Part shown: positions 1,595-29,740 of the stretch, in pieces
Position numbering within the stretch: position 1 is the first letter of the stretch
Layout of the letters: each line of letters opens with the position of its first letter
Assembly (NCBI GenBank): GCA_963790095.1
Contig: CAWBNO010000007.1
Coordinates: forward strand, 15,852-79,851
DNA: 64,000 nt
Source of the DNA: an uncultured delta proteobacterium
Lineage (GTDB): Bacteria; Desulfobacterota; Desulfobacteria; Desulfobacterales; UBA11574
Reading direction: 5' to 3'
Made by a program: the position numbers and the translations under genes
Notes under the pieces: model-generated
What the model was told of the DNA's origin: nothing
What the model saw: the letters and a program-made list of their open reading frames with translations, nothing else
Database searches by the model: none

Positions 1595-1874
1595 AGACCC
1601 TAAAATAACACTTGTATTATAGATTAATTTAATATATATAATTTTAGTATGATTTAACTTGAGAGATTGAATTTTGTCAAGCAAAAAGTCGATGGCGTCC
1701 CCACACCGAAATAATAGAATGTGACAATAAATTATATTTTCCAAAGAATTGGGTTGTGTTTTCACGGTGTTCTGTTATGGATGAAAAGAAAGCCCAACCC
1801 TATCATCTGCAGTTTCATCCATCGACTTAAAATTTTGTTTTTCTGGGCCCAAACGATTTACAGCGGCAGGTCAA

Positions 1875-10865: not shown

Positions 10866-10946
10866 TAATAATCATAGAAATCAAAACTGTTGATAACTAA
10901 AAAGTTTAGGGTTGAAATCCCTGCGATAAATAGCAGAAATCAAAAG
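10866..10946 (-). repeat. diverged copy E of the island repeat family
   Basis: Shares the exact 16-mer ATAGCAGAAATCAAAA (10930-10945) with copy A (18500-18515). A looser alignment extends over ~65 nt. Confidence 0.5.
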
Positions 10947-10956
10947 TGTGGATGAT

Positions 10957-10984
10957 AAAAAAGCAGGGCCATTGCTGACCCTGC
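10957..10984 (-). terminator. intrinsic terminator after the usp gene
   Basis: Minus strand reads GCAGGG-tcagcaatgg-CCCTGC followed by TTTTTT. Confidence 0.7.
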
Positions 10985-11028
10985 CAATTTAAAGATTTTT
11001 AAATTATTTTGATGTTCTTGACTTTTCC

Positions 11029-11478
11029 CTATTCACCATTCCGAGAACGGATGAGGAGCAGAGGGCGATCTATACGCTGCAGCACTCCAGCTGAGATACT
11101 TCCATAAAATGTCCTGGACAAACCGCTGCGGCCGTGGCTGGCCATTGCCAATAGATCTGCATCTTCACTTTTTGCAGCATCGAGAATAGCTTTCACAACC
11201 GGACCATGGCCGATGAGAGTTTGTACCTTGATACCGTCTTCACGAAATTGTCCTTGAAGGGAAGCAAGATAAGACTCTGTTTCCTTGATCTGCTGATCGT
11301 GTTTTTCCTGGTATATCGACATGCCAATAATTTCATCATGTTCTAACAAATGTCCCGGTTCTATAACGATAAAAAAAATTGCTTTAGCCTTGAAACATAG
11401 TGCGAGGTTCTTCACATGAGGCAATATCGCCTCAGCTCGTTTCGAGCCGTCCAAAGGAACCAGTATCTTTTTATACAT
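11029..11478 (-). CDS. universal stress protein (UspA family)
   Basis: MYKKILVPLDGS...ADLLAMASHGRSGLSRTFYGSISAGVLQ is the canonical Usp ATP-binding G-x2-G-x9-G(S/T) block. Confidence 0.85.
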   Translation of the reverse strand: MYKKILVPLDGSKRAEAILPHVKNLALCFKAKAIFFIVIEPGHLLEHDEIIGMSIYQEKHDQQIKETESYLASLQGQFREDGIKVQTLIGHGPVVKAILDAAKSEDADLLAMASHGRSGLSRTFYGSISAGVLQRIDRPLLLIRSRNGE

Positions 11479-11646
11479 ATTCCCCTCCTGTATCTAAAAA
11501 ATTGAGATCCCCTGAAACCATCATCATTTTATCACACTGAGTTAATAAAAATATATCCCCACTTTCATATCAAATAGTCATGCGGCATGCACAAATTTTG
11601 GTGAATCACTTTTTATTCTAATGGTGTTTTGTCCGAAATATTCGGA

Positions 11647-12330
11647 TTAAGCCCTGTTCAATTGACTCAAAGTTCCGCTGACAGAATTAACTGCGTCATC
11701 GATACTTAACGTTCCGGTATTGATGATAAGGTCATAATTTAGTGGGTGCCTGATGTCATCATTGAAGTATTTTTTTATAAATGCCTTGCGATCTGAGTCT
11801 GTTTTTAAAACCCTGGGTCTGGCTTCATCAACGCTCACGCTGAACTTTTGGGATACGTTTCGGAGTCGCGTTTCCAGGGGCGCAATAACTCGGACGCTGA
11901 GTCTTTTTTCAGGAGGCAGAACAAAATTAGCGCCTCTCCCTACGATTACAGCCTGGCCGTGTTTGCCGATGGTCCCGATAATCTTCATGAGATGCTGAAG
12001 ATACCGGTCAGGCCATAGGTGTCGCTTATCTACAATCGATGATATCCATTCTTCGAGAACGGATGCACCTTTTTCGTCAAGCGTTTCTATTAACCGAACG
12101 CTTAGGCGAGCACTTTCAGCCATATTGTGTATGAATTCCTGATAAAATAAATCGAATTCGAGCTGATCGGAAAGTCGTTTGGCCAATATATTCCCACCAC
12201 TTCCGGCTTCTCTGGAGATGGTAATAACAGAGATACGTTCATCCTTTTTTTTCTCTTCCGTTCGTGTAATCTTCCATCTTTGTACCTGTTCTTCTATTAT
12301 TTGCTCGATAGAACGTGCTTTAGCTCTCAT
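11647..12330 (-). CDS. cytidylate kinase-like family protein (P-loop)
   Basis: ITISREAGSGGNILAKRL P-loop context, typical of the cytidylate-kinase-like family. Confidence 0.65.
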   Translation of the reverse strand: MRAKARSIEQIIEEQVQRWKITRTEEKKKDERISVITISREAGSGGNILAKRLSDQLEFDLFYQEFIHNMAESARLSVRLIETLDEKGASVLEEWISSIVDKRHLWPDRYLQHLMKIIGTIGKHGQAVIVGRGANFVLPPEKRLSVRVIAPLETRLRNVSQKFSVSVDEARPRVLKTDSDRKAFIKKYFNDDIRHPLNYDLIINTGTLSIDDAVNSVSGTLSQLNRA

Positions 12331-12636
12331 GTTCCCTCCTTTCTTTGTAACTCACAGCGTTATAGGAAGAAGCAACATCATGGCGGGGTGAGATGCCCCA
12401 AAGAAGCGAATTTTCGCCCCTTTGGGGCTCGTTATCGGGATTGTAAGAAAACTCCTCCTCATAGTCTTCCTCTATAATGGCATTTAATTACGTTATTACA
12501 TACTCAAACCGAAAGCGAACTTCTCTTCCAATTTTAGCATGGTGGCAAAAGAGGTTGAATTGTTGGAAGAATTAATGCAAAAAAACCCCACCCTTTAAGG
12601 CGGGGTCAAGTGTTAAATCATTAAGAGAATCGGAAT

Positions 12637-13125
12637 TTATGCAGCAGCATCAGACTCTTGGATCTGACCTGAACCAAAGGAAAATGAAGCATCAGACTTA
12701 GCCGTCGAGGTAATCATTTTATAGCTCCAAAGGAGTCGATTGCCAATCAATCCGGCCAGGCGTTTAAAGAAAATGAGCCCCGGGCCGGGATATTTTTCAA
12801 TAACTTTATGGAACTCTCCTCTGTGAAAATTATCCAGAACCGTCGTTTCAAGACACTCTCCCGATGCTGAATAAAATTCGCGACCGATCAGGCTCGACCA
12901 GCCAAAAGCCTCACCAGCACTATCTACGGTGTAAACCACTGGCCCGGTTTCACCGACGGTCAGTTTAACGCGTCCTTTGATTAAAATATAGAAGTGATCT
13001 GCTGGATCTCCCTCACGGAAAAGAAAATCTCCCGGTTGATACGTTTCTCTGACGGCAATACCCATCATATCCTTTACAAAGTCCTTGTCCATGTCCCAAA
13101 AAAGAGCTGATTGTTGGATATACAT
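12637..13125 (-). CDS. cyclic nucleotide-binding domain protein
   Basis: GDFLFREGDPADHFYILIKGRVKL...GEAFGWSSL is a cNMP-binding beta-barrel signature. Confidence 0.75.
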   Translation of the reverse strand: MYIQQSALFWDMDKDFVKDMMGIAVRETYQPGDFLFREGDPADHFYILIKGRVKLTVGETGPVVYTVDSAGEAFGWSSLIGREFYSASGECLETTVLDNFHRGEFHKVIEKYPGPGLIFFKRLAGLIGNRLLWSYKMITSTAKSDASFSFGSGQIQESDAAA

Positions 13126-14103
13126 GGCTCCCCCCTTTCATTTGAAATGCCATGGGTTGCAGAAAAAGACGGTATGGAGCCCATGGTTATAAGATCGTCG
13201 GTTTCAAGGGTTAACAATTCGAAAAATCGTTTGCTTACCCTATTGAAATAACCGCATTGTAACCATTAACGCGTTAAATCCCCAAAGGATGCCTTGCGGT
13301 TCCTTTGGGGGTAAATATTGGTATTTTGAGTAGTCCTTTGATCATTGGGGCCTCACTAACGGTTTGGCCCGAAAATCTCCGATGCCAAATTGATTGAAAT
13401 CAGGAAATCAATATTGCGTTGCCAGCCGGTAATTATCTCTTAACATATAGTCCGAACATCGCCAGCTTCAGGACAAATGCATAAAAAGATCGAATGAAGG
13501 TGGTATTAAAGCAACCGAAAAATTTGAGAAGCTCGAAAGCCGTTCGAATTGCTAAAGATATTAAAAGTCCATCTCAATACTTTTCATCTTAAAACATAGT
13601 TATCAAAATAAGCAGCTTTGTATTTGTTCGTATCCTCCTTTCATTTTTACTCTTATCCTTAGTCCCTTTAAGAAAACCAGTCGGCTTCCAATAGCCTTTT
13701 TTGTGGAGTACCAGAAACAAGCATAAGACTATCTACTATCAGTAGAACAAAAAATTTTTTATTGTGAGAATTAATGCAAGACAGAGTCTTATGTTTAAAA
13801 AAAATTTTGTTTGCAAAGCAATTTTTCTCAAGCATAAAATTATTTAAAATTAAAGGACTTACCTCAAGAAATCTTCTGCAGATTTAGGAGACTTTGTCAA
13901 TGGAGCTTAGAGCTCATTTTCATAGGCAAACATCCCATTATTATAGGGAATTATCCCAAATGCTGATTGGAAACACCTATCATTATTTCAAGGTGTTGAA
14001 TGTATGACTGAAAATGAGATGGTGACAAAGTGATGGGGGCAGTTACCCCCGTCCTCTCAGAATTGATTGCTTCCTCTGGGGGTCCAGATATCTTACCTGA
14101 ACC

Positions 14104-14397
14104 CTAAATATTTTTTGCCTCAGTAATTAACTTATCAAACTTTTCAACTTCCACTACAGGTGATGTTGCAAATGAGATTCCTGTCAGTTCGTTTAATGCA
14201 ACAGACGTGGCAATGGCATTTTCATGGGTAGGGAACTCCAAGGTAAGAACAAGGTCATGTTCTCCCATCACAGCATACATTGATATGACTTTTCCACCAT
14301 TCCTTGCGATCAGCTCAACTGCTTTATCCGTTCTTTCAGAACTGATTCCCTTCAATGCCTCTGTGGAATACTTTCCAAACATCATGAATATTGGCAT
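14104..14397 (-). CDS. GYD-domain protein
   Basis: 97 aa. MPIFMMFGKYSTEALKGIS...GGKVISMYAVMGEHDLVLTLEFP matches the GYD family pattern. Confidence 0.7.
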   Translation of the reverse strand: MPIFMMFGKYSTEALKGISSERTDKAVELIARNGGKVISMYAVMGEHDLVLTLEFPTHENAIATSVALNELTGISFATSPVVEVEKFDKLITEAKNI

Positions 14398-14414
14398 GTC
14401 GAATCCTCCCCTTT

Positions 14415-16292
14415 TTAGAATTCTTTCAGTGATTCATGGATACCTTTGTGAATTTCGTACCAAAAATTCAACGCCGCCTCTTTCTTGTCCGTCTCAAATT
14501 TTTCAATCCATTTGGCAAGATCAGCTTCGATATTTCCTTCAACAGTTCGTTTTCTTTTTAAAAAGGTATATATTATTTCGATATTTCTATTAGATTCCCA
14601 AAAAATAGAAGCATTTCGACCGTTGATACGGCTCGCTGTTTCAGAGATCGTTTTTAAAAATTTTTTCTTAAGCCCATAAAGCGAATCCATAATATCGGGG
14701 ATCATTTCTTCACCCCAACCCCTATGAAACCGACACATACCCAGATTGTCCATGATCAATTCTTTTTGGAAACGGTCAGCGTTTTTTCGGCCCAGTTCAC
14801 GCGGCGGTAAAAATTCTTTTCCATAGTACATATAATATTTCCCCATAATTGGCATGGGTGAAAGCACGCCCGGAGTCCAGTACTGGTTGGGAACTGTCCA
14901 GCCGTTGCGGGCATATGCGTTATAAACAAAAGCATCCACAATTTGTTTGCCTTTTTCTCGGGAAAGCCGGCGTGCAAACTTGCGGGCACCCTCTTCCAAG
15001 TTGATAATATTTCGCTTTTCGATTATGGAGTCGAGCAATGCTATACCGATGTCTGCATTGTGCATGGAATCCGATGCGATGTTAAAATCCTTATGAGTGA
15101 AGACCGGAATTTGTTTTACTCCGAGTTCTTTTGGGGTCAGATATCCTTCGTATAGACACTCCATAAGCCACGAGACGACACCGCCCACAGAGATCGCATC
15201 AAATCCATACATATCTGCGTGGTGATTCAACTTTTCAGCAGCCCTCTGATCAAAAATACCCGATAAAGGTCCCATTGCTTGATAGGGTTCATAATCTTTT
15301 TTGTATTTACCATGCATTTTTTTACAAAATGCTACACAAGGTTCGCCACACGTTTTTTGTTTTTTAGGTCCGATGGTTTCTTCATTAAATTGTTTCAAAT
15401 AATGGTTGAGTATGAACGTATCGTGTATATCTAATCTCTCTTGTTCGCTCATAAAGATACTTCTGTAATTGAAAGAATACATATTGCCGGCTAACGTGGC
15501 AAAGTTGACGCCAAGGGTTCCTCCTGTCTGAAAATCAGGGTCAAACCGGTATTTGGTTGTCGCTTCCAGATCTTTTGCCGCCAGTTTTTTCTGGTATTTG
15601 TCGATAAACCACTGATCGGCGACCTTTCTGTCACGAAAATCTTCGGTAATAAACGTTCCGCCATATATGATTGCGGCAATCCCATGTTCTTGCAAAAGTT
15701 TGGAACCGAAGCCGCCTCGTCCCGCCCACGTATCCGCAAAACCCAATTTGCCTTTGGCAATGGGAACCGAGGCAACGGCTCCAAAATCTGTAACCGCCGC
15801 AGCAGGGCCGACGGCAAGAATTCGGGGATGGTTCGAATAATACTCACCAAAGCGTTCAAAGGTGTAATCCATTAACGCATATATGCCTCTGCGCCCTTCT
15901 TGCCATACTTTCTGAATCTGAACCGGCTCAATTCTAACTTCAACTTCCTCGCCACCATCTCTATTGAGGTATAAAATAGAAGGAATTGGGGCTCGATTGA
16001 CGATGGCAATCATATTTACGCCCAGATTATCAAAAACCAATCCAGCGCCCCCCATGGACGAAACGTAGAAACCTGTCCAGCTGGGAGAAAAGCCATTGAA
16101 AAACAGCCGGTTTGAGCCTGGAAATATAGATCCTGCCAACAGTCCTGTTCCAATATTCAACGATCTGTACCGGCCAGCAAGATGAAGACCAAGATCGATT
16201 GGACCGAAAAACGGTTCACCGACAGTATACCGGGTTATACGGTAAAATGCCGTAGCAGCATCAATAAACAAAACTTTTTGATGACTTTCCAT
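14415..16292 (-). CDS. aldehyde:ferredoxin oxidoreductase (AOR) family tungsto/molybdopterin enzyme
   Basis: Long ORF with an AOR-like C-terminal block ELIMDNLGMCRFHRGW and the Cys cluster CGEPCVAFC. Start set to MESHQKVLFIDA (ATG 16292). Confidence 0.65.
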   Translation of the reverse strand: MESHQKVLFIDAATAFYRITRYTVGEPFFGPIDLGLHLAGRYRSLNIGTGLLAGSIFPGSNRLFFNGFSPSWTGFYVSSMGGAGLVFDNLGVNMIAIVNRAPIPSILYLNRDGGEEVEVRIEPVQIQKVWQEGRRGIYALMDYTFERFGEYYSNHPRILAVGPAAAVTDFGAVASVPIAKGKLGFADTWAGRGGFGSKLLQEHGIAAIIYGGTFITEDFRDRKVADQWFIDKYQKKLAAKDLEATTKYRFDPDFQTGGTLGVNFATLAGNMYSFNYRSIFMSEQERLDIHDTFILNHYLKQFNEETIGPKKQKTCGEPCVAFCKKMHGKYKKDYEPYQAMGPLSGIFDQRAAEKLNHHADMYGFDAISVGGVVSWLMECLYEGYLTPKELGVKQIPVFTHKDFNIASDSMHNADIGIALLDSIIEKRNIINLEEGARKFARRLSREKGKQIVDAFVYNAYARNGWTVPNQYWTPGVLSPMPIMGKYYMYYGKEFLPPRELGRKNADRFQKELIMDNLGMCRFHRGWGEEMIPDIMDSLYGLKKKFLKTISETASRINGRNASIFWESNRNIEIIYTFLKRKRTVEGNIEADLAKWIEKFETDKKEAALNFWYEIHKGIHESLKEF

Positions 16293-16450
16293 AACCCCAC
16301 GCTCCCGCCCCGCCCTTTGGGCGGTGAATTCCACTGCGATCCAACCACCGCACGGCACTGCCGTAAGCCAACGCTGATACAAATTGATCTAAAAAGTTTT
16401 TAAACCCATACCAATCGATTCTCAAAAATTGCTTAAAACTACCAACTGCT

Positions 16451-17401
16451 CTACTCACCCCGGATTTTGGTTTCTGCAATCTTTTTTATTAGGGATTGGG
16501 CCTCGATAAAGATTTTGGAAACCGCGGGAACTGCATCTTTGACGCCCAATTCGACCCTGTCCACAACCGCTTCTAGCTCATCCGTGGACAGATCGTCTAT
16601 AAATTCAACTTCCATATTGACAAGAATATCTTCAGGCCCCATGTGCATGGTAAGGAGTTTACCGCATCGTTTGATTTCGGGCACGCCGCATATAACCTGT
16701 CGAATGCGTTCCTGGTCTTTGCTGCCCGCGCTTTCGCCGATTAATAGAGCTTTGGTTTCCCGGGCCAGGAAAATAGCCAGTATAAACAGCAAGATGCCGA
16801 TTAAAATACTGGCAGCGGCGTCAAAAAAGGGCATGCCAGTAACATGTGCCAGACTGATACCCGCAGCAGCCACAAACAACCCGATTATGGCGGCACTGTC
16901 TTCAAAGAGAACGACCATGATGGTAGGATTTTTGGATCGAACGGCCAGATCTAAAAAACCGGAGAATCCCTCCCTCGATTTCAGATTTTTCGCTTCTGAA
17001 TATGCCACCCACCAGGGATAAGCCTCAATAATAACGGATATACCAAGAACAATTAAGGGAATATAAAGGGATTTGACCGGCTCCGGATGGAGTATCTTCT
17101 TGACACCTCCATAAATAGACAGTGCGGCACCAACGCAAAAAATTGAAACAGCAACCACAAATGCCCAGAAATAAAGCTCTTTACCATAGCCAAAAGGGTG
17201 CTTTTCATCGGGAGGCCGAGCGGCGCGTTTATGGCCAATCAGCAGCATCACCTGGTTTATGCTGTCGGCCGTGCTGTGAAAGCCTTCCGCCAGCATGGCC
17301 GCACTGCCCGAAGAAACAGCGACGATAAACTTCATAACGGCGATGGCGGAGTTGCCGATCAGCGCGGCATAGATAATCTTTTTATCGCTGTGTTTTTTCA
17401 C
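16451..17401 (-). CDS. cation diffusion facilitator (CDF) family metal efflux transporter
   Basis: AMLAEGFHSTADSINQ...HPFGYGKELYFWAF; six predicted TM segments plus a cytoplasmic C-terminal domain. Confidence 0.85.
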   Translation of the reverse strand: MKKHSDKKIIYAALIGNSAIAVMKFIVAVSSGSAAMLAEGFHSTADSINQVMLLIGHKRAARPPDEKHPFGYGKELYFWAFVVAVSIFCVGAALSIYGGVKKILHPEPVKSLYIPLIVLGISVIIEAYPWWVAYSEAKNLKSREGFSGFLDLAVRSKNPTIMVVLFEDSAAIIGLFVAAAGISLAHVTGMPFFDAAASILIGILLFILAIFLARETKALLIGESAGSKDQERIRQVICGVPEIKRCGKLLTMHMGPEDILVNMEVEFIDDLSTDELEAVVDRVELGVKDAVPAVSKIFIEAQSLIKKIAETKIRGE

Positions 17402-17534
17402 TTTTCGATATCAATCGCTGGGGGGAAACCAAGATTCTTTCAAGCCGGTTTAACGACAATCACACTGTTCAGCGTACCGAAGTGGTTTTTACAAACCTGT
17501 TCGTTGGCCGGATCCCGTTGTTCAACATACGTTA

Positions 17535-18023
17535 TTACTTAAATGTAATGATTGTTCGACCACGAGAGGTAAAAGAAACGCCTTGATTACTTTTTGTGCC
17601 AATCATTATCGATTCAACAATAGGTGGATTAACAAATTTATCGGATTTCCATTCAACAATAAAGTTGGCACCTGACCCACCAGCTTTGTCTCTTTCTGGT
17701 ATGACGTAGCGCAATGACTCTAATGGGTCTATGATTACTGGCTTTTCTACATATTTTTTTAAGAGCTTCCCTTGCGTCTCGTAATAATCGACTATTGTGA
17801 TTTTGATTTGATGCTTAGGATCAATGTTTCTGATGCTTAAAGTTACCGTCAACAAGAAGGGTTGTTCACGGTTGCCACTGTAAATATGGGAATAAGCAGG
17901 CACATAAATGGTCTGCCCGTCAGATAACCCGATTTTCTCGTCAGCATATACAGGCAGAGATAAAAAAAGACAAAAAGGTAAAACAAGAATAAAAAAACAA
18001 GCAAAAGGATAGCTCTTTTTCAT
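17535..18023 (-). CDS. secreted protein, DUF3124-like
   Basis: N-terminal signal peptide. GQTIYVPAYSHIYSGNREQPFLLTVTLSIRN and GGSGANFIVEW blocks, as I recall them for DUF3124. Confidence 0.55.
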   Translation of the reverse strand: MKKSYPFACFFILVLPFCLFLSLPVYADEKIGLSDGQTIYVPAYSHIYSGNREQPFLLTVTLSIRNIDPKHQIKITIVDYYETQGKLLKKYVEKPVIIDPLESLRYVIPERDKAGGSGANFIVEWKSDKFVNPPIVESIMIGTKSNQGVSFTSRGRTIITFK

Positions 18024-18380
18024 GGTTACTCTCCAAGTAATTATAAGTGTAAAAAATGATTATCTGTATAAAATTGTAAAGACAGATTATTAAAATATAT
18101 ATTTATGTAAATCATGTTTTAACATCTTGTATTAAGCATGAATCTGCTATTGTTTCAGTATAGTAAAGATAGTGTTCAATTGGAACGAGCCATAAAGATA
18201 CACAACATAAGAGGGCAGGGAAATTGGGCCGGAATCAGTTGTGGCTTGAATACGGTCATTCCAAATCTATTGATACCACAACTGACTAAAGAAACGCAAA
18301 GATTTCATCCAAAGAAAAGGCGGTTGATCAATCGTTTTTGGGATTCACTTCTCAGGGCTTTGTAATCGTAAAATGGTGGC

Positions 18381-18516
18381 TTGCATACAGATATCTTATT
18401 TCTTACAAAATTGCAAAAAAGACAAACCCGATGAAATGGATTTGCCTCTATCAAAAACGATATCACAAGTTCTGAACCCGGGGTTAACATGTTGGATACA
18501 TAGCAGAAATCAAAAC
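18381..18516 (-). repeat. island repeat family, copy A (terminator-containing ~135-nt element)
   Basis: Contains AAAACGATATCACA, GTTCTGAACCC, ATGTTGGATACAT and ATAGCAGAAATCAAAAC. On the minus strand it ends with the hairpin AGGCAAA/TTTGTCT plus a T-run. Confidence 0.75.
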
Positions 18517-18680
18517 TTTGAACTGGATGGTTTACACACTATATTCGGATAATAAAATAAGGGTTGCCGAAATCACCGAATTCGATTTGAACGAATATGA
18601 CAAAATCAGCAACCCCGTTTCAGAAAAAAGTATTAACTTGCAAATGTCAGAAATACCGAACCGCTCAAGCTCTGGGTCAA

Positions 18681-19094
18681 TCATTTTTCAGGCAGGGTAT
18701 AGGTCCCGGTGACATCGACAACCGCATCACCCTTGGTTTTATCCTTGGTATAGGGTGTGACGTACTTGCCGCTGAAGGTGACCTTCCCTTTAATTCCTTC
18801 AAACCTGCCGGTCCCCTTGATGTATTCACCCGTGCCCTTTAATGAGTGTAGCTTTTCGCCTGGAGGCACCGCAGCAGTGCCTTGATATTTTGTAATAATT
18901 GTGGAACCGTCCGCAAATGTATAATCGCTATATCCATTAAAAGAGCCTCCTTGACCTCTGATTGAGTCAAAAGTAGCCCGAGTGTGATAGGCTGCTGTTT
19001 CGCCATTTTCATAGATAGCAACGCCTCTCCTTTCAAGCACACCAATGGCGTGTTTTTCTACGTCAGGGATCTTGAACCATTCCCGCTTTATCAT
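18681..19094 (-). CDS. hypothetical protein
   Basis: 137-aa ORF with a GGAG just upstream; no recognisable family. Confidence 0.5.
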   Translation of the reverse strand: MIKREWFKIPDVEKHAIGVLERRGVAIYENGETAAYHTRATFDSIRGQGGSFNGYSDYTFADGSTIITKYQGTAAVPPGEKLHSLKGTGEYIKGTGRFEGIKGKVTFSGKYVTPYTKDKTKGDAVVDVTGTYTLPEK

Positions 19095-19164
19095 CTCCTT
19101 TCAAATTAATGAACAATAAGAAATTTTGTTATGATATCCTACTTACTCCTCCCAAGGCGAAACC

Positions 19165-19963
19165 CTAAATCGTTACTCCGGTAGGAATCAACGGTGAGTC
19201 TTTTATTCCGATTTCATAACTTCGAGCGGAACAACGAGCGAATTTCGGCTTCGAGTTCCAGCTTCCTCCCCGATAGATCTCTGGTATACCCTTCTTCTCT
19301 GAATAATGGGTTATTCCGTTCATGTTTTTTATAGGCCCAAGCTCTATATGTATCCTCACACCATTCGTTTACGTTGCCATTCATATCAAACAGACCGAGC
19401 CCGTTTGGGGCCTTGGTGGCCACAGGGTGCGTGGAACGATCACTGTTTCCGTGGTACCACGACACTCGGTCAAGGTCGCTTTCTCCAGCATATTTCTCCG
19501 GTTTTCCTCCACTTCTGCACGCATACTCCCACTCCGCTTCGGTTGGGAGACGAAATTTATAGACGTCCTTGCTTGAGGCAGAAAGTTTCTTAGTGAACTT
19601 CTCTACCTCCTCCCATGAGACTTTTTCGACCGGATAATTGCCACCTTTCTTGAACTCGGATGGATTTCCCCCCATGACCTGCTTCCACTGTCCTTGGGTA
19701 ACTTCCGTTTTCCCCATCCAAAAACCATCCACACAGACTTCGTGTACAGGCTTCTCATCACGAAAACAGTCATTTGTCCAATTTCCACAACCCATCTCAT
19801 AGCATCCACCGGGAACCCAGACAAACTCCATCCCAGTGACTGGCTCCCTCCAGATTTCTCCAGCAGTCGGGGTACTCGACTGTGCGATTATTGTGCATGG
19901 GAATACAATTAGAGCGAATACGAAAAGCCATCCAGAAAATGTTACTTTATCGAACATTGCCAT
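19165..19963 (-). pseudogene. formylglycine-generating-enzyme (SUMF1/FGE-sulfatase) family protein, secreted; reading frame broken near the 3' end
   Basis: Frame 1 gives WVPGGCYEMGC...FRLPTEAEWEYACRSGG...GLFDMNGNVNEWCED...NNPLFREEG. The family's C-terminal RGGSWNSKPKFARCSARS block sits in the other frame (ORF 19165-19359). The frame switch lies between 19273 and 19310. RBS GGAGGGGG lies before ATG 19963. Confidence 0.75.
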
Positions 19964-20470
19964 AACCCCCTCCTTTGCTGTAAATAATTGCACCGTTCAC
20001 TTCACTTTCTTTTGTTTTTAAATCGTGAGACAAATCGGGCTGACGAAGCACCATGCGAGAAGAACAACCTGAAAATAGAAACAACATGAGACAAAATATT
20101 AAAAAGTTTTGTCATTTCATTTCCTCTCCTTGTTTCATTCCATGAAGAGAAATAGTTGTAAGTCAACAATTTGAACAGAGGAAATACAGAAGATAGCCTT
20201 TTAAATTAAAATGGTTGCTATTACGTTTAATGAAGATAAAAGTTGTGAAAATGAGGTCAGCAGAACAATAGATGCTCCACAATGAGAATTGATTGGATTA
20301 TGGAAGGCTGATCTCTTAATAAAAATTATATTAAATTATAAATGTTGTCAATAGAATTATAAATAATATTAAATCTATTTTGTTAAAAAGAATACTTAAA
20401 ATTTAGTTCCTAACCGGAATAAAAAAAGGAATATCTTGCCATACTCAGAACCTGAAACCAAATTTCGTTT

Positions 20471-20594
20471 ATTACATATACCATAGAAAATGAATAGGGC
20501 AAATTCCGTAAAAGAACTTCACCCTTATTGTAAAACGATATCACAGGTTCTGAACCCACTGTTAAAATGTTGGATACATTGCAGGTATCGAAAG
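20471..20594 (-). repeat. island repeat family, copy B
   Basis: TAAAACGATATCACAGGTTCTGAACCCACTGTTAAAATGTTGGATACATTGCAGGTATCGAAAG aligns with copy A. The upstream ATTACATATACC is shared with copy D. Confidence 0.7.
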
Positions 20595-20614
20595 CTGGAT
20601 ACCGCAAAGCAAAA

Positions 20615-20648
20615 TAAAAAGCCCCTAAAGTTGGATAACTATAGGGGC
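20615..20648 (-). terminator. intrinsic terminator of the small membrane-protein gene
   Basis: Minus strand reads GCCCCTA-tagttatccaactt-TAGGGGC followed by TTTTTATTTT. Confidence 0.7.
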
Positions 20649-20680
20649 ATAACTACTTCAAAAAGTGATATAATATCATT

Positions 20681-20923
20681 TTACGGTTCGTTTAATGCTT
20701 GTAAATTATCTTGTGTTTTCTTTATTGATGAAGAATGCTCCGGTTCCGATTCATCGTTTGACTTTACCACAGTCTCATTTACAACAACTGCTGAAAGGAA
20801 AGCAGCTGCAAGGATTCCTGAAAGAGCTGCCAATCCTATAAATGCATTGGCTGGGGGAACTGCTGCAAATGAAAAAAGCATAATGGCTGCAACAATTAAT
20901 GCTATACTTTTTTGATTTCTCAT
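20681..20923 (-). CDS. small secreted/membrane protein (80 aa)
   Basis: AGGAGG RBS 8 nt before ATG 20923. MRNQKSIALIVAAIMLFSFAAVPPANA signal peptide, then a second hydrophobic helix and an acidic tail. Confidence 0.6.
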   Translation of the reverse strand: MRNQKSIALIVAAIMLFSFAAVPPANAFIGLAALSGILAAAFLSAVVVNETVVKSNDESEPEHSSSIKKTQDNLQALNEP

Positions 20924-21292
20924 AGTTGCACCTCCTATACTTTGATATGTTTTAAATTTATATGAAAAAGGCACTCCAAATTGACAATAAACCGTCTGAG
21001 ATAAAAAGATCAGATTGCAAAAAGCCAAAAGGATTATTTACCTTAACCATTAATGTAGTGCCACATTGTGGTATGTCAAGATATTCTTTAAAAAATGGAG
21101 CCAATTCTGATAGCTTAAAGGAAAAATTTGGTTCTGTCCGTGGACAAACATGGGGAGAAAGTGGGGAGTTGATAAACAATTATGTGCTTAAAACATCAAT
21201 TCCCAAAAATAGAAGATTTTGAACCGAAATCAATATTGTGGTTGCCATACACAAAACCTAAAGCTAATTCTTATTTTATGCATATAGCATCA

Positions 21293-21352
21293 AAACGAAA
21301 AGAGCAAACCATGAAATAATGATTTGGCCTTTTTGAAAAACAATATCACACG
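21293..21352 (-). repeat. island repeat family, partial copy C
   Basis: GGCCTTTTTGAAAAACAATATCACACG plus the hairpin AGGCCAAA/TTTGCTCT. The distal half of the element is absent. Confidence 0.5.
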
Positions 21353-21439
21353 AAAATTTATTTAATATGATAGGTGTGTTTTAAAGAAAAATATAATTTT
21401 CTACTGTCATTATGCTGTGTTTTTCTTTAGTTTCAATTA

Positions 21440-21679
21440 CTAATTCTCCTCGTCTTTAATTTTACGTTTCCAATAGACCATCACGCCATCTTGGCCGAAA
21501 GAAAGTTGGACAAGTTCCCAGCCTTCCTTACCATGGTTGTTCAGAATATCAGTTAAGATTCTTGTCTGATCTTTCGAGACTTCATCAATACCGCATTGGC
21601 CAGACTTAGAACAAAAATAGATAATTTTATCAAAGGTATCAGCCGAATGCTTGGTAATCTTGTATTCAAAACGTTTCAT
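21440..21679 (-). CDS. DUF4177-like small protein
   Basis: MKRFEYKITKH...LNNHGKEGWELVQL pattern. AAAGGAGG RBS. Confidence 0.6.
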   Translation of the reverse strand: MKRFEYKITKHSADTFDKIIYFCSKSGQCGIDEVSKDQTRILTDILNNHGKEGWELVQLSFGQDGVMVYWKRKIKDEEN

Positions 21680-21892
21680 ACGGCCTCCTTTCTCATTATT
21701 TTATCAATGAACTTAATTTCCTTTCTCTGTTCTGCCTCAGCGAATCGGAAATGTCTATGCCAGAATTTACGCCTTCCGAGTATATGAAGCAGCATACAGC
21801 TTCAGATAAACCATGTTGAAAAGCAAATGTGAATCCCTAAAATATAAAAAGGACCAGGATTTATTCCCGATCCTTTTGAATACTATTTATAT

Positions 21893-22048
21893 TTAACGAC
21901 AGCAAGGATCGACATAACAACAAGGATCAACGTAACAACCACAGGGATCAACTACGTTGCAGCCACATGGATCAATTATATAACAACAGGATTCAGAGGC
22001 TTTTCGATCCGTAGTGTCGGTATTTTCTGATTTTTTATGATCGCTCAT
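21893..22048 (-). CDS. 51-aa cysteine-rich peptide with four DPC(G)C repeats
   Basis: Own translation: MSDHKKSENTDTTDRKASESCCYIIDPCGCNVVDPCGCYVDPCCYVDPCCR. AAAGGAGGTG RBS 5 nt upstream of ATG 22048. A hairpin plus T-run follows at ~21850-21880. Below the 60-aa cutoff of the ORF track. Confidence 0.6.
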   Translation of the reverse strand: MSDHKKSENTDTTDRKASESCCYIIDPCGCNVVDPCGCYVDPCCYVDPCCR

Positions 22049-22330
22049 ACAATCACCTCCTTTAATTTTAGTAGAGGTGAGACGATTGGGACCTCATATT
22101 CCTACCAGTCAATGATTTATTAAAAAATAACAAGGCTACATGCAACCCTATACATAAGTTAATCTCACAATGTGGCACTGTCAATCTTCTTCTTCAAAAG
22201 ATTTTATTAAAATAAAAAACATAGCAATAAGTGGCTTCGTGTTTACATTTTCGATGGTCGAAAATTGAAGGTTTATCAATGAAGTGGAACAAGGGATATC
22301 ATAACCAAAGGTCAAAGCATCTTAATTTCC

Positions 22331-22466
22331 ATTACATATATCGTATTTCTTACAGAAATGCAAAAAAGGCAAACCTTGCAAATGGATTTGCCCTATTGAA
22401 AAACGATATCACACGTCTTTTGAACGCACTGATATTTACATGTTCATTGCAGATGTACGATATCGG
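22331..22466 (-). repeat. island repeat family, copy D
   Basis: ATTTCTTACAGAAATGCAAAAAAGGCAAACCTTGCAAATGGATTTGCCCTATTGAAAAACGATATCACACG aligns closely with copy A. On the minus strand: GGCAAA/TTTGCC hairpin plus TTTTTT. Confidence 0.75.
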
Positions 22467-22570
22467 TAATCGGCCTGCATAAGCGGCTTGCGTGATTTTT
22501 CGCAAGTCCGGCTTAATGCAAAAGTTGGGCAATGGAGTTTGCCCGTTGTCAAAGTTGCCCGTGGCCCGCA

Positions 22571-23416
22571 TTAACCTTTGTCTCTATTCCGGTCATCATA
22601 CCAATACTTTTTTGCAAATTCTTCAACGCGCTTTGATGAGAAACACATTCCATACAGCGCGTATGCGATCAAGGAAAAATAATGCCAGTCTCCATGCTGA
22701 TCAAACTTTCGCATGGAGGTGACTGCCTTTATAGAGGTTACACGGGTCAATTTTTGTTCGCGCGGTCCGCCCAGCTGCCGTAATCGCCACAGAAAATCAA
22801 CATCCTCCGCGAACAGCTTTTGTTCATTGTACCCGCCTATAGCCACAAAATCACTCCGCCGACAAAAAACAACGCCTGTGTCCATGCCTGTTGCCCACGT
22901 CAGCGGCACCATGACCATATACGCCATAACGATACCCAAGGACACACGCTCCATACTGACACCGGTTGCACCCGCGATCACCCTGTTGTTTAAGATAGCA
23001 CGATCAATCGCATTAAACGTGTTGGGATGGATTCGGCTGTCGGCGTCTATAAACGTTAGGATTTCTCCTTGGGAGGCAGCTGCGCCAGCATTACGTACAG
23101 CGGCAATGACGCGTTTTTCTTCATGGACAAGCAGGCATCCACGAGCACTAGCGATCTCCGCAGTTCTATCAGTAGAGGCATTATTAGCGACGATGACTTC
23201 AATTGCGTTGCTGCCACCCTTATAATGAAGACGTGCGATCTCCACCGAGTCAAGCAACGCAGGAAGATAGTCTTGCTCATTATGAGCTGGGATAATCAGC
23301 GAAAACCGAAAAGCAGCCCTTCTTCTCACGTTTAAGTTTTTTTCCTCCACACTGCGACTCACCATATTTGTCCAACTAGTATTATGCGTCCTAAAAATAT
23401 GGGCAAACACGTACAT
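22571..23416 (-). CDS. family 2 glycosyltransferase
   Basis: FSLIIPAHNEQDYLPALLDSV, VIVANNASTDRT and FIDADS (DxD) blocks. The true start may be the internal ATG at 23365. Confidence 0.75.
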   Translation of the reverse strand: MYVFAHIFRTHNTSWTNMVSRSVEEKNLNVRRRAAFRFSLIIPAHNEQDYLPALLDSVEIARLHYKGGSNAIEVIVANNASTDRTAEIASARGCLLVHEEKRVIAAVRNAGAAASQGEILTFIDADSRIHPNTFNAIDRAILNNRVIAGATGVSMERVSLGIVMAYMVMVPLTWATGMDTGVVFCRRSDFVAIGGYNEQKLFAEDVDFLWRLRQLGGPREQKLTRVTSIKAVTSMRKFDQHGDWHYFSLIAYALYGMCFSSKRVEEFAKKYWYDDRNRDKG

Positions 23417-23678
23417 TTATTGATGCCGCATAGTGAAATACAGATGGTTGATTACATGTAGCTTACCAGCATTCAAAGTCCGGCCTTTTTACAGATATCG
23501 TATAAAAAACGGTTAATTAGGTAAGCTGAAATCAGAATTAAAAAGCAATTTTATTAGATTAAAATAGTCGGAATTGGAATTCCGTGAATAAATTGGAGTT
23601 AATTACTTGATGTTACAGGTTATTTTTGATCCTTGTGTTTGGAGAGATATTATAGCAGTCGTCGTAACGTCAAATATC

Positions 23679-23882
23679 TCATTTATTATCAGATTCCTCC
23701 TTTCTTTTCTTCGGCGAAGGCTCTTCGCTATCGTATACCTCAACATAAGCGTTGTGGAAGGGGCATCCTTTTTCCCAGTGATTCCTTACTTTCTGGCCGA
23801 TAAATGATTCTGGATATTTGCGCCCGATGTTGCACCCGGGGCAGACCTTATTCCACCAAGCCAGTACTTTTTTCATTTCCAT
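23679..23882 (-). CDS. small Cys/His-containing protein (possible zinc ribbon)
   Basis: 67 aa; CPGC ... CPFH pairs; lysine/glutamate-rich tail. Confidence 0.45.
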   Translation of the reverse strand: MEMKKVLAWWNKVCPGCNIGRKYPESFIGQKVRNHWEKGCPFHNAYVEVYDSEEPSPKKRKEESDNK

Positions 23883-25665: not shown

Positions 25666-26592
25666 TCAAGTATGAAGAAAAAGCTTCACAAGCCGATTCC
25701 AGCCGACTCGGGGAATGCTTCCATAGATATCATTCCCCAATTGACCGCCGTCCGCAGCCAACGGGCCTGCCGAATCTTCTATCACCCGATAAAGCCGATG
25801 GACTTCTTGTTTAAAAAAATCTTTTGCTTCACTGCCGATCATCAGATTCTGCAAATCCTCGCGAAGATTTTTTGAATGGACCCTCAAAACCCAGCCGTCA
25901 GCGTACGGATCTTGATTGGCAAGGCTCCCTTCGTCTCTTAATTTGGCGTTGATGGCAGTAACAACACCACTTATCGGTGAAAGCACCTTGGCCTGGTTTG
26001 GACCTCGGCTCATAATGATATCCGCAGAGTCTTGCTCTAAAGGCTTACCAATAAGAGGAGCCTCAATTTGATCGAGAGGACCCAAGACCCGGAGCGCAAA
26101 ATCATCCAATCCAATCCGGACTTCAGAACCTTCTTCCACTTTCACCCAAGCATGTCCTTTATGAAGATAAAATCCATGGGGGATCTTAATGCCTTCGATA
26201 TCCATGAAATCCACCGGCCTGACCACCGCATGGACCGTGTACTGGTCATTAAAATATTGATCAAATTCGCAATCTCCACATTTGTAATCCCTGTTGCAAG
26301 CTTTAAAATCAATGCGTCCTTTCATATGGTGCATGCATGGACGTTTCCACGGATGTCGTTGTTTTAACTTATCTTTCCAAAAAACCATTTGGCCTTTTCT
26401 TCCGGTTGGAATTTTGCCCTTTTTTTTGAGCCTCTCGTTTTCATCGCAAACACGCCTCAAGGCTCTGTCAAAACGGCAACCCGGGCAGTCATAGTTGCTG
26501 ACACAAAATTTGCGTTGAACGACTTCTGCCTGCATCCAAATGCAAGGGCTCTGTTTTTCTGTTGATCGATTCTTCAAAGGGATAGAATCCAT
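25666..26592 (-). CDS. GcvH-like (lipoyl-domain fold) protein with N-terminal double Cys4 module and conserved C-terminal extension, paralogue 1
   Basis: Central block HGFYLHKGHAWVKVEEGSEVRIGLDDFALRVLG...LSPISGVVTAINAKL...NQDPYADGWVLRV resembles glycine-cleavage H protein. N-terminus has CIWMQAEVVQRKFCVSNYDCPGC and CMHHMKGRIDFKACNRDYKCGDC. Confidence 0.7.
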   Translation of the reverse strand: MDSIPLKNRSTEKQSPCIWMQAEVVQRKFCVSNYDCPGCRFDRALRRVCDENERLKKKGKIPTGRKGQMVFWKDKLKQRHPWKRPCMHHMKGRIDFKACNRDYKCGDCEFDQYFNDQYTVHAVVRPVDFMDIEGIKIPHGFYLHKGHAWVKVEEGSEVRIGLDDFALRVLGPLDQIEAPLIGKPLEQDSADIIMSRGPNQAKVLSPISGVVTAINAKLRDEGSLANQDPYADGWVLRVHSKNLREDLQNLMIGSEAKDFFKQEVHRLYRVIEDSAGPLAADGGQLGNDIYGSIPRVGWNRLVKLFLHT

Positions 26593-26682
26593 TGTTTCCT
26601 GCCTTTCTTGAACGCTTCATCAATATTGAAGCTCCCTGAACGACATTATTTTTCAAAGATCCTGGTGTATTAAACATCGATG

Positions 26683-27681
26683 TTATGTTTTGAGAAACGT
26701 TTTCGTCAAATTTTTCCACCCGAGATCCGGAAGATTTCCATAGATATCGTCTTGCAAATAACCGCCATCCGCGGCCAAAGGACCTGCAACGTCTTCTATC
26801 ATGCCTTCCAGGGTGTCGATTTCATGGTTGACCCAATCCAAGCTGTCTGTATCTGACATGAGTTTTTTAACGGTTTTTTTGACATCCGGTGTATGCACCA
26901 TGAAAAGCCAGCCATCACCATAGGGCTCTTGATTGGCGATCGCGGGATTTTCTCTGACCTTTGAATTGACCTCTACAATGACGCCGTCCACCGGGGAAAG
27001 AATATCTGCCAAATTATCCTTCCGTTTCAATCCCCATCCCACACGGTCCATGTCGAGTTCCTTGCCCATCAGGGGAAGATCGAAAGCATCGGCTTTTCCC
27101 AACAGCTTGAGCGCAAAATCGTCCAGACCAATTCGGATATATCCACCGCTTTCAATTCGAGCCCACGTATGCCCGTTATGAAAAAAATACTCCATTGGGA
27201 CATCAAAACCTTTGACATGTTGCACTTCAAAGGGAACATTTTTGGTTTTGGCGGTCCATACTTCCTCGAAGAACTGGTCAAAATCGCATTTGGAACAATT
27301 ATAGTTCAACCCACATATCCTATTTTCGATGCGGCGGGTGAGGCTGTGCCGACACGTTCTATCCCTGCCCGGTCGCTGCCGCATGGCATCTTGCCAGCTC
27401 ATCTGCTTGCCTTTTGTTATCTGCTTCTGCATTCCCAGATCATATTTGCAGGTGTTGCAGTCATAAAAATTGTTGCAGTTTTTAAATTTTACAACACCGG
27501 CCTGCATCCAGATACACGGGTTTGCAGCTTTGGCCGCTCGGTCCGGCTTAAACATCCAGACCTGTCCCCCAAAAACCGCCCCGATCTCCGATTCTTTTCC
27601 CAGATCCTGCCGGATTCCCTTTCTGTAAGAAGAACCGTAACCAAACCGACTTTTTGGGGCCTCTCTTATTTTTTCTGCCAT
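26683..27681 (-). CDS. GcvH-like protein with N-terminal double Cys4 module, paralogue 2
   Basis: Same three-part architecture as paralogue 1: CIWMQAGVVKFKNCNNFYDCNTC; CRHSLTRRIENRICGLNYNCSKC; HNGHTWARIESGGYIRIGLDDFALKLLG...LSPVDGVIVEVNSKV...NQEPYGDGWLFMV; shared tail AGPLAADGG..DDIYG. Confidence 0.7.
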   Translation of the reverse strand: MAEKIREAPKSRFGYGSSYRKGIRQDLGKESEIGAVFGGQVWMFKPDRAAKAANPCIWMQAGVVKFKNCNNFYDCNTCKYDLGMQKQITKGKQMSWQDAMRQRPGRDRTCRHSLTRRIENRICGLNYNCSKCDFDQFFEEVWTAKTKNVPFEVQHVKGFDVPMEYFFHNGHTWARIESGGYIRIGLDDFALKLLGKADAFDLPLMGKELDMDRVGWGLKRKDNLADILSPVDGVIVEVNSKVRENPAIANQEPYGDGWLFMVHTPDVKKTVKKLMSDTDSLDWVNHEIDTLEGMIEDVAGPLAADGGYLQDDIYGNLPDLGWKNLTKTFLKT

Positions 27682-28369: not shown

Positions 28370-29740
28370 TTAGTCGATTCCATAGGAGTTGAGCTTTCTT
28401 CGAAGGGTGTTCAGGCCGATGCCAAGACGCCTGGCGGCCTTGGATTTGTTTTGGCCGGACAGTTTATAAACCTTGATAATATGGAATCTTTCAACTTGGG
28501 CAAGGGATACCATATCTTCTGCTGCGGACGGGGTCAGACAGTTTGATATCGACTTGGACCTTCTTAATTCGTCGGGGAGAAAATCTGAAGAGATGGACCG
28601 CCCCTGGGCCAGATTTACGGCGGACTGTATGATCGACTTGAGTTCCCGGATGTTTCCGGGATAGTCGTACTCCATGAGCAGGCACATGGCCTCTTCTTCT
28701 ATGGTAAGATTTTTATTAGAGCGGTTATAGTCGTTTAGAAATTTACTCGCCAGAAGTGGTATATCTTCTCTTCTCTCCTTCAAAGGCGGCAGATGAAGCC
28801 ATCCGCCCCTGATTCTGTAATATAAATCTTTTCGGAAAACCTTTTTGGCCATCAGTTTTTCCAGATCTTCGTTGGTGGCGGCAATAAAGCGGACATCGGC
28901 CTTTTGATGGCGACTTTTACCCAGCTTAAAGTATTCTCCATCCTGCAGAACCCGCAGGAGTTTTCCCTGAAGTTCAAGGGGCATGTTGCCGATTTCGTCT
29001 AAAAATACGGTTCCGTGGTCGGTGTATTCCAGATATCCCTTGCGGCCATTTTCAGCACCGGTAAAGGCGCCTTTGGTGTGGCCGAAAAACTCCGCTTCAA
29101 AGAGACTGCCGGTGAGGGAAGCCATGTTGATCGGTGTAAAGGGAAACTTCCCCCGGAGGCTCGCAGCGTGAATGGCCCATGCAAGAAGTTCCTTTCCGGT
29201 TCCGCTCTCACCGGTAATTAACAGCGGAACATCGCTGCCTGCATGGAGCTCCGCTTCTTTGAGAACCCTTAAAACCTTTTGGGATCGGGTGACAATCGGC
29301 TTAAACGGTGCCGGATTTATCAGTTGGGGAAGGGTCGGACTTTTTTCGATATCCAGGATATCGAGCAGCCTTTTTTTCTCAAGTACCCGTTTCATGGAAA
29401 AGGCAAGATCTTCCTGGGAAACGGGCTTGACAAGATAATCATACGCACCTTTTTTTAAACATTCCACGGCAACCCGGGCCTCGTTGACCGCGGTGATCAT
29501 AATACATTCGGTTCTTGGGCTGATGTTCTTGATGGTTTCGAGCACTTCCAGCCCGTTCATCTCGGGCATGGTCATATCGATCAGTGCGATATCGAAAACC
29601 GCTCCTTGTTCAAACAGAGAAACCGCTGTTATGGAATTATCTTCCGTGCGTATATTTTTAAAACCTGAATTCAGAAGATGCGACCTTATGATTTTTAGAA
29701 AATCGAGATCGTCATCGATGATAATTATTTTATTTTCCAT
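28370..29740 (-). CDS. sigma-54-dependent response regulator / enhancer-binding protein
   Basis: Receiver KIIIIDDDLDF...DIALIDMTMPEMNG; AAA+ GESGTGKE; GAFTGA; EAEFFGH; C-terminal HTH AARRLGIGLNTLRRKL. Confidence 0.9.
   Translation of the reverse strand: MENKIIIIDDDLDFLKIIRSHLLNSGFKNIRTEDNSITAVSLFEQGAVFDIALIDMTMPEMNGLEVLETIKNISPRTECIMITAVNEARVAVECLKKGAYDYLVKPVSQEDLAFSMKRVLEKKRLLDILDIEKSPTLPQLINPAPFKPIVTRSQKVLRVLKEAELHAGSDVPLLITGESGTGKELLAWAIHAASLRGKFPFTPINMASLTGSLFEAEFFGHTKGAFTGAENGRKGYLEYTDHGTVFLDEIGNMPLELQGKLLRVLQDGEYFKLGKSRHQKADVRFIAATNEDLEKLMAKKVFRKDLYYRIRGGWLHLPPLKERREDIPLLASKFLNDYNRSNKNLTIEEEAMCLLMEYDYPGNIRELKSIIQSAVNLAQGRSISSDFLPDELRRSKSISNCLTPSAAEDMVSLAQVERFHIIKVYKLSGQNKSKAARRLGIGLNTLRRKLNSYGID

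Follow-up and report, generated by a model that had tools for sequence, protein, structure and literature searches.

Extragenic mosaic repeats such as the REP/BIME sequences of Escherichia coli and the NIMEs of Neisseria, the latter being RS units flanked by dRS3, are assembled from a few discrete modules joined at short conserved motifs, they are associated with variable regions and recombination, and they contain a palindromic unit that is able to act as a terminator or an mRNA stabiliser. The attC sites of integrons are conserved in structure and not in primary sequence, except within one sedentary integron, and recombine at one crossover point between cassettes that are promoterless. Here we describe a family of modular intergenic elements, 150-280 nt long, that lies among accessory genes of one direction in variable islands of uncultured marine Desulfobacterales and occurs as four minus-strand copies, A to D, in a 64-kb stretch from an uncultured delta proteobacterium of this order (assembly GCA_963790095.1, 99.3-kb contig CAWBNO010000007.1, positions 15,852 to 79,851; hereafter the window). 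We read these repeats, with a probability of about 0.5, as mosaic intergenic terminator-plus-promoter junction elements of cassette-like accessory-gene arrays, whose conserved anchors would be recombination breakpoints. In the literature that was accessible, neither the sequence strings nor the topic led to any account of the element, and the family appears to be previously undescribed.

The repeats belong to a family found in many Desulfobacterales genomes

Repeat finding in the window recovered the A, B, C and D repeat families, and the 15-mer TGTGATATCGTTTTT occurred there four times with at most one mismatch, always on the minus strand. Supportively, a profile built only from copies outside this genome matched the whole 64-kb window at the four copies and nowhere else in it (Table 1). 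An earlier note on this DNA, made from its letters, had reported four clear copies in one orientation and an exact 16-mer common to copy A and a further site, E, 7.5 kb apart, and both observations were borne out. Its description of the family as island-specific did not hold, since the family is absent only from the other ~52 kb of the window and is present in many other genomes. When an exact degenerate 23-mer was searched in one-genome-per-species collections, 113 stretches were obtained (L numbers below), nearly all of them labelled Desulfobacterales, Desulfobacteraceae, 'delta proteobacterium' or Thermodesulfobacteriota; four (L032, L047, L053 and L091) had no hairpin and were chance matches. 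The profile search detected 150 copies at E<1e-6 in ~100 genome loci from dozens of Desulfobacterales metagenome-assembled genomes (MAGs). One long-read MAG carries copies at at least nine separate places and one complete chromosome at two. Among 2.9 million viral contigs there was a single chance match and no genuine copy, and a phage origin was rejected on this result.

Many element-bearing contigs were placed in bins labelled Nitrospinaceae, Myxococcota, Bacteroidales, Ignavibacteriaceae or Rhodobacteraceae. L050 and L078 are 99.8% identical over 3.4 kb, yet are binned as a 'Nitrospinaceae' MAG and a 'Myxococcota' MAG, respectively, and further loci in oddly labelled bins are L014, L041, L055, L076, L098, L114, L116, L119, L122, L018 and L113. 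Such labels probably reflect mis-binned contigs of flexible islands, not cross-phylum spread. Short-read contigs often stop inside or beside an element (L002, L003, L006, L010, L011 and many others), which marks it as an assembly breakpoint.

The element is a mosaic of a terminator module and a promoter-like right half

Full elements, measured from CTGC to GGCAAG, fall into two size classes of 146-149 nt and 158-161 nt. The left boundary motif, anchor A1 (GAT(A/T)TCTGC(A/T)AT), is followed by a variable segment of ~30 nt that exists in at least five discrete and unrelated variants, by the core, a near-invariant 20-mer (TGTGATATCGTTTTTCAATA), and by a hairpin of 9-11 bp (GGGCAAATCC...GGGTTTGCC) that leads into a T-run. 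Fused directly to the T-run is a promoter-like right half in three versions, R1 (TTGCAA, 17 nt, TATATG), R2 (TGnTATATG) and R3 (TTGATT, 17 nt, TATATG), all of which run on into anchor A4 (GATATATGTAAT), a leader of ~30 nt and anchor A5 (TTGGCAAG(A/T)A(T/A)C). Arrays such as that of L122 repeat this layout, from A1 through the core (+43), hairpin (+65), A4 (+115) and A5 (+155) to 1.3-1.5 kb of unique DNA. The units had at first been described as ~120-135 nt long and ending in a terminator; copies B, C and D, however, run 40-55 nt further downstream, to a ...TGGCAAG motif, and the terminator therefore lies in the middle of the element and not at its end.

The modules also occur independently of one another. 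The variants of the left segment pair almost freely with the right-half versions, the two right-hand sub-modules are linked, and in 10 of 69 cases what precedes the right half is another terminator or a stop codon. Two further forms of the terminator module were found, a short one in which the palindrome TGTGATACC-ATAATA-CGATATCACA takes the place of the hairpin and the next A1 follows directly (Table 1), and a third with TGTGATATCATACTC..AATTGAACTG (L005, L035, L061 and L104). Between A1 and the second terminator type, which is the one present at E, the intervening block is often TTATCCACA, the E. coli DnaA-box consensus (~10% of left flanks, e.g. L038, L100 and L122). A DnaA box was rejected as a part of the element, because only that ~10% of copies has it in the left flank and the majority of its 22 occurrences in the loci and the window (~5 expected) lie outside elements. 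A small leader peptide (MLEPV.LAR, or an ATG-TAA start-stop) was rejected as well, its variation not being codon-like and its frame being absent from R2 and R3.

The hairpin with its T-run is present in all copies and is the sole fold common to all variants. Each of the four hairpins in the window has a folding energy between -10 and -14 kcal/mol and a U-run behind it; a simple terminator scanner called none of them. Most of the stem does not vary; it shows some G-U changes, and compensatory changes in four of eight pairs provide weak covariation. With a G+C-containing hairpin, an immediate U-run and a position downstream of a co-oriented gene, the structure is a predicted intrinsic terminator. 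In one example the left arm pairs with the right over a long distance, as it would in the single long imperfect hairpin of an attC site (z of -2.1 as RNA and -1.5 as DNA). Over 99 copies, however, the duplex energy of an element's own arms (-21.6 kcal/mol) was no better than that of cross-copy (-22.1) or shuffled (-21.2) pairing, and such pairing was set aside for want of any excess over these controls.

In each of the three right-half versions, a -35-like hexamer or TGn is correctly spaced from TATATG, suggesting that this half may act as a promoter. Several loci have a Shine-Dalgarno sequence and start codon 30-60 nt past A5, and a promoter would therefore be located within or before the element. 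A sigma-54 promoter was rejected by direct reading, since the GG-N10-GC spacing is wrong at every candidate (GGCAAA..TTGCA gives N11 or N12, and TGGCAAG has no GC at -12). Rfam gave no match at the gathering threshold in the window and, between 10 and 25.5 kb, no hit of relevance even at E<=5; in five array loci its hits were limited to a group II intron and a riboswitch. This riboswitch is of the c-di-GMP-I-GGC class (L122:3832-3946, minus strand; 62 bits, above the gathering score) and stands upstream of a 78-aa open reading frame (ORF) within an inter-element unit; some units therefore bring their own cis-regulator.

Copies are clustered in one orientation between unrelated genes

At least two copies, 0.3-6 kb apart, were found in 19 of the 44 loci of at least 7 kb. 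All copies lie on one strand in 34 of 35 multi-copy loci, and their spacings range from 0.3 to 6.1 kb, with 21 of 23 below 4 kb. This polarity extends to the neighbouring genes: counting ORFs of at least 90 aa from crude ORF calls, the nearest ORF is co-oriented with the element in 88 cases against 19 upstream and in 77 against 29 downstream. The genes themselves are diverse. The first downstream ORFs represent 81 Pfam families in 78 ORFs, and only sensor kinases (14 loci), TPR proteins (5) and sigma-54 activators (4) recur across loci, with no recombinase or transposase family among them. That the element is the end of an insertion sequence (IS) or the upstream leader of a transposase was rejected, the downstream genes being diverse cellular genes. 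A co-oriented ORF is the nearest one upstream of 88 copies, and in seven of these fewer than 60 nt separate its end from the core. The core of copy C follows the DUF4177 stop codon by 89 nt with no left module; the earlier view that the copies are independent units and not 3' untranslated regions (UTRs) thus fails for some of them.

Neighbouring genes and modules change at the conserved anchors

An identical 79-aa DUF4177 protein was found on 13 contigs of other samples with differing neighbours, namely a PilZ-like gene on the upstream side, or OsmC on the downstream side behind another element variant. Through the GT2 gene and copy D, L105 matches the window at 99% identity, and beyond that point it continues into different DNA. 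Across all locus pairs, the shared segments end at three recurrent places, A1, the T-run and A5. At least eight pairs break at or just past A1, including the 67-aa gene of the window compared with L076 and L124, five to seven pairs break at the T-run after the hairpin, and six at A5. Comparison of the loci shows that genomes exchange neighbouring genes and modules at the conserved anchors. These breakpoints and the independence of the modules therefore delimit three exchangeable units, which are the gene block (A5 to A1), the terminator module (A1 to T-run) and the leader module (T-run to A5). A 'replaced segment' in L028 and L044 was discarded as ordinary intergenic indels.

The earlier note had asked whether the edges of copies coincide with changes of gene content between strains, and they do, in that the same genes have other neighbours and the breaks fall at anchor motifs. 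Its cassette-like array is likewise supported by the same-strand clusters, the unrelated flanking genes and the altered neighbours at anchors, and of the alternatives that it listed, a gene-cassette array with the repeats as its junctions or recombination sites agrees best with the comparisons between genomes.

Two mobile elements were observed directly at the right end of the junction element. In L105 (1075-3255), a group II intron (Rfam RF02005 at 1179-1430; reverse transcriptase/maturase ORF at 1773-3098) begins right after the element's right end (...GGCAAGAAAGCACA), the part upstream being 99% identical to window positions 22300-23372; past the intron, the usual GTTTTGACAAG... module resumes and leads into a gene block unlike that of the window. 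In L117 (1585-3628, minus strand), an IS91-family element with a tyrosine recombinase and an overlapping Y2_Tnp/Zn_Tnp_IS91 transposase lies directly after TTGGCAAG, and a remnant of it is present in L024. The tetranucleotide CAAG is a known target of IS91.

The elements as probable junctions of accessory-gene arrays

In the proposed mechanism, A1 would mark the 3' end of an upstream unit, the terminator module would stop transcription of the upstream gene, and the promoter-like leader would restart, or condition, transcription of the next gene. As transcription would be ended and then restarted by the element, each inserted gene would be an insulated unit. The junction element would travel with accessory genes and be swapped among them, most likely because its numerous similar copies recombine or undergo gene conversion with one another, although a dedicated recombinase may be involved. 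The properties that carry this reading, demonstrated by the comparisons above, are the hairpin and T-run, the polarity with both neighbouring genes, the clustering and the modular exchange at anchors.

Several points weigh against it. The ~100 nt that are nearly invariant across dozens of species are not explained by plain terminator or promoter function, and, at 12 nt in the case of A1, the anchors are short for an exchange that depends on RecA. Many 5' breakpoints between homologous genes fall at the ribosome-binding site and not at A5, and the units are therefore less sharply delimited than the cassettes of integrons. In the putative -10, TATATG, the final T that is normally conserved is missing, and a promoter scanner gives no call there; the enrichment of -35 and TGn signals is largely non-independent because it stems from repeated modules.

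Alternative explanations of the elements

The alternatives are taken here in descending order of plausibility. The first, which we consider possible but unlikely, is that the terminator module constitutes a small RNA (sRNA) gene family, either stand-alone or 3'-UTR-derived, in which a 5' domain that varies precedes a conserved single-stranded seed (UGUGAUAUCGUUUUUCAAUA) and a terminator of the Hfq type, and that the seed could pair with GAUAUCACA(GGUU) at A5 in the leaders of neighbouring genes. The conserved 20-mer does stand immediately 5' of the hairpin and U-run, and the module is sharply bounded at A1 and the T-run, like a self-contained gene. A complementarity of 9-13 nt between (AACC)TGTGATATC and GATATCACA(GGTT) was found at many right ends, and variant c has a plausible promoter ahead of the core (TTGATA, 18 nt, TATCAT; L076). 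However, variants a, b, d and e show no consistent -10, and the scanner gives one-off sites only; the hexamers proposed in the earlier note (TTGATT-18-TGTTAA in A and TTCGAT-18-TTTTAA in B) lie inside the very segment that is swapped among at least five unrelated variants. Some copies are located 30-90 nt past a stop codon with no left module, and therefore have no room for a promoter. Moreover, the terminator is the only structure common to the variants, no Rfam family matches, and a family of sRNAs would account neither for the right half, which is just as conserved, nor for the strict co-orientation with both flanking genes.

A second and rather more doubtful explanation is that the elements, or the GATATC-centred anchors (A1, core, A4 and A5), are the sites of a new site-specific, attC-like gene-cassette system served by a trans-acting recombinase, or that cassettes insert just past terminator hairpins. 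The same-strand clusters with spacings of 0.3-6 kb, the unrelated single genes between sites and the three sharp junction classes fit such a system, as does the GATAT(C/A) contained in several anchors. In addition, the minimal variant TGTGATACC-ATAATA-CGATATCACA is arranged 9-6-9, as is a simple core site for a recombinase, and the right half always starts at a terminator T-run, whatever the terminator. On the other side, RYYYAAC/GTTRRRY boxes are absent. ATCCAAC was found in variant-a copies only, with no GTTRRRY partner in the consensus or any module, and canonical attC sites were rejected on the absence of core boxes. No integron integrase was detected; a motif scan for HxxRH-type tyrosine recombinases, which is not a full hidden-Markov-model scan of every ORF, gave none in the window and three in ~113 loci, of which the one in L117 scores 184.8 bits, in two separate stretches, against the TIGR02249 cut-off of 265. 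Nor does any recurring protein family correspond to a recombinase or transposase. Furthermore, GATAT is absent from the junction at the T-run, the edges of genes are often imprecise, copies occupy at least nine separate places in one genome and not a single platform, and the arms give no long-range pairing signal.

An integrase-free gene-capture array, in which leader-gene-terminator units would insert or swap at the T-run of an existing terminator and at the GATATC anchors, is improbable. Each incoming unit would carry the target for the next, which would therefore account for the uniform polarity and the clustering; a recombinase or a hairpin-targeting mechanism would be the catalyst, and the 20-mer beside the hairpin would be the recognition site.

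The least probable explanation, a selfish non-autonomous mobile element of the MITE (miniature inverted-repeat transposable element) or PATE kind that inserts in intergenic DNA and owes its conservation to recent spread, agrees with the many near-identical copies across genomes, the contigs that often end at copies, the weakly inverted-similar ends (GATATCTGC...GCAAGATATC; TGTGATATC...GATATCACA) and the group II intron and IS91-family element located right at A5, but is opposed by the strict polarity with neighbouring genes, the local clustering, the independent occurrence of modules, the lack of an associated transposase family and of genuine copies on viral contigs, and by the flanks of 43 full elements, in which neither a target-site duplication nor a terminal inverted repeat exceeded the permuted controls (4.33 vs 4.32 permuted for the longest common substring when direct, 4.51 vs 4.50 when inverted). 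The MITE-like debris considered in the earlier note likewise finds no support in this comparison.

Copies and gene context in the window

The copies lie in a stretch of low GC content (0.33-0.43 at ~10.9-23.9 kb, against 0.45-0.58 in the remaining window) in which all plausible genes are on the minus strand. The genes encode unrelated accessory functions and comprise a 67-aa gene, GT2, a 51-aa gene, DUF4177, a 55-aa gene, an FGE-like gene, a 137-aa gene, DUF3124, a CDF transporter, AOR, GYD, a cNMP-binding protein, a cytidylate-kinase-like protein and Usp; several of them adjoin elements in other genomes too. An exact-protein look-up of DUF3124 gave no match. The window outside this stretch is housekeeping DNA (Nuo complex, MTHFR, sensor kinases) with no copy, and no tRNA marking an island border was found in the 64-kb window.

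At the end of the array, E had been taken for a diverged copy; it consists instead of a different terminator and the left boundary motif twice, and this type of terminator-A1 block was found again in 17-19 other loci. A trace suspected at 23483-23505 proved to be related to the element, and is more precisely a decayed right-half module. The homology of the window to L076 and L124 ends exactly at the isolated A1 listed in Table 1.

Table 1. Positions of element copies, their parts and related features, in window coordinates unless a locus is given.
Feature	Position	Strand	Remarks
Element-bearing low-GC stretch	10866..23882	-	all plausible genes minus-strand
Profile match D	22458-22299	-	E 9e-41
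Profile match A	18512-18382	-	E 2e-34
Profile match B	20590-20432	-	E 2e-19
Profile match C	21353-21241	-	E 3e-10
Copy A	18381..18516	-	left part and R1; no M3/A5 right end
Copy A, A1	18511-18500	-	GATTTCTGCTAT; then variable segment type a
Copy A, core 20-mer	18467-18448	-	
Copy A, hairpin (T-run follows)	18447-18421	-	-14.1 kcal/mol
Copy A, R1 promoter-like block	18416-18397	-	
Copy A, A4-like motif	18395-18384	-	
Copy B	20430..20594	-	full element, variable segment type a
Copy B, A1	20589-20578	-	
Copy B, core	20545-20526	-	hairpin ends at 20498
Copy B, R2-type block	20482-20471	-	TGgTATATGTAAT; then leader
Copy B, A5	20442-20430	-	ATGGCAAGATATT
Copy C	21237..21350	-	no A1, no variable segment
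Copy C, core	21350-21331	-	89 nt past DUF4177 stop codon
Copy C, hairpin	21329-21303	-	then R2-type right half, end TATGGCAAC
Copy D	22294..22471	-	full element, variable segment type b
Copy D, A1	22457-22446	-	
Copy D, core	22413-22394	-	
Copy D, hairpin	22393-22368	-	
Copy D, R1 block	22363-22344	-	
Copy D, A4	22342-22331	-	GATATATGTAAT; then leader M3a and degenerate A5 GGTTATGATATC
E, array end	10866..10985	-	no core, no element hairpin
E, second terminator type	10985-10962	-	GGCAGGGTCA..CCCTGC and T-run
E, block	10952-10960	-	ATCATCCACAC; between terminator and A1
E, A1	10941-10930	-	second, partial A1 at 10886-10871
Decayed right-half (promoter-like) module	23450..23505	-	T-run, ACGATATCTGTAA, ..TGGTAAG; upstream of GT2 gene; below profile threshold
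Isolated A1	23652..23663	-	GACGACTGCTAT; 3' end of 67-aa gene
Short palindrome variant	L014:2472-2530		also in L038, L092, L113 and L122

Other observations concern the window itself. The ORF at 18681-19094 (minus strand, 137 aa), just upstream of copy A, belongs to a 90% identity cluster whose other eight members have 179 aa, and it may be 5'-truncated or have a displaced start. GATATC occurs 49 times in the 64-kb window (~16 expected for a 6-mer), and also within several anchor motifs. Two adjacent paralogues of 308 and 332 aa at 25666-27681 (minus strand) each have a C-terminal GcvH (lipoyl-carrier) domain and an N-terminal half with no domain assignment, and are neighboured by a sigma-54 response regulator at 28370-29740.

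Discussion

If the elements are insulated junctions for the swapping of accessory genes, they would show how, with no classical integrons, a large group of uncultured marine sulfate reducers arranges its flexible genome and reshuffles it, and if a dedicated recombinase exists, they would represent a second, independent solution to gene-cassette capture. The 20-mer and the leader are ready probes for asking, in metatranscriptomes, whether hundreds of unrelated genes have one regulatory input in common, which could be an sRNA seed paired with a leader that they share or a single protein that binds DNA or RNA. The repeats also break assemblies and seem to cause mis-binning, and knowing them aids the curation of MAGs.

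Among known systems, multi-copy sRNAs (Qrr, LhrC and csRNA types) and 3'-UTR-derived sRNAs likewise combine a single-stranded conserved stretch with an intrinsic terminator and form paralogous copies, some of them in tandem. Unlike these families, the element has no conserved promoter, a variable 5' part and a conserved right half that is not RNA-like, and its hundreds of copies across genomes are tied to gene junctions. The Correia elements of Neisseria are also intergenic repeats of ~100-160 nt with possible transcription signals for their neighbours, but they have 26-bp terminal inverted repeats, a TA duplication and either orientation, none of which was seen here.

The resemblance to integron attC arrays and to clusters of attC sites lacking an integrase (CALIN) lies in the geometry, with one-orientation repeats 0.3-4 kb apart between unrelated, mostly single, co-oriented genes, an imperfect hairpin in each repeat, and a gene order that varies between strains at the repeats. 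In contrast to attC, the elements have no R''/R' core sites and no IntI, their primary sequence is highly conserved across species, and they are longer, with a T-run terminator and a promoter-like leader. Unlike the promoterless cassettes of integrons, the units between them appear to bring a promoter-like module of their own. They also have three junction classes, and their arrays lie at many places in the genome.

The elements share with REP/BIME and NIME repeats an extragenic location, a composition from few discrete modules that meet at short conserved motifs, a palindromic unit and an association with variable regions and recombination. They differ from these repeats in their strict polarity with flanking genes, a single hairpin in place of alternating inverted REPs, a promoter-like half and a different clade; no RAYT- or Piv-type enzyme and no recurrent enzyme family turned up in the loci, no search having been aimed at RAYT or Piv genes. 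On balance, the element is best filed among intergenic mosaic repeats of the BIME/NIME kind, with an integron-like array geometry.

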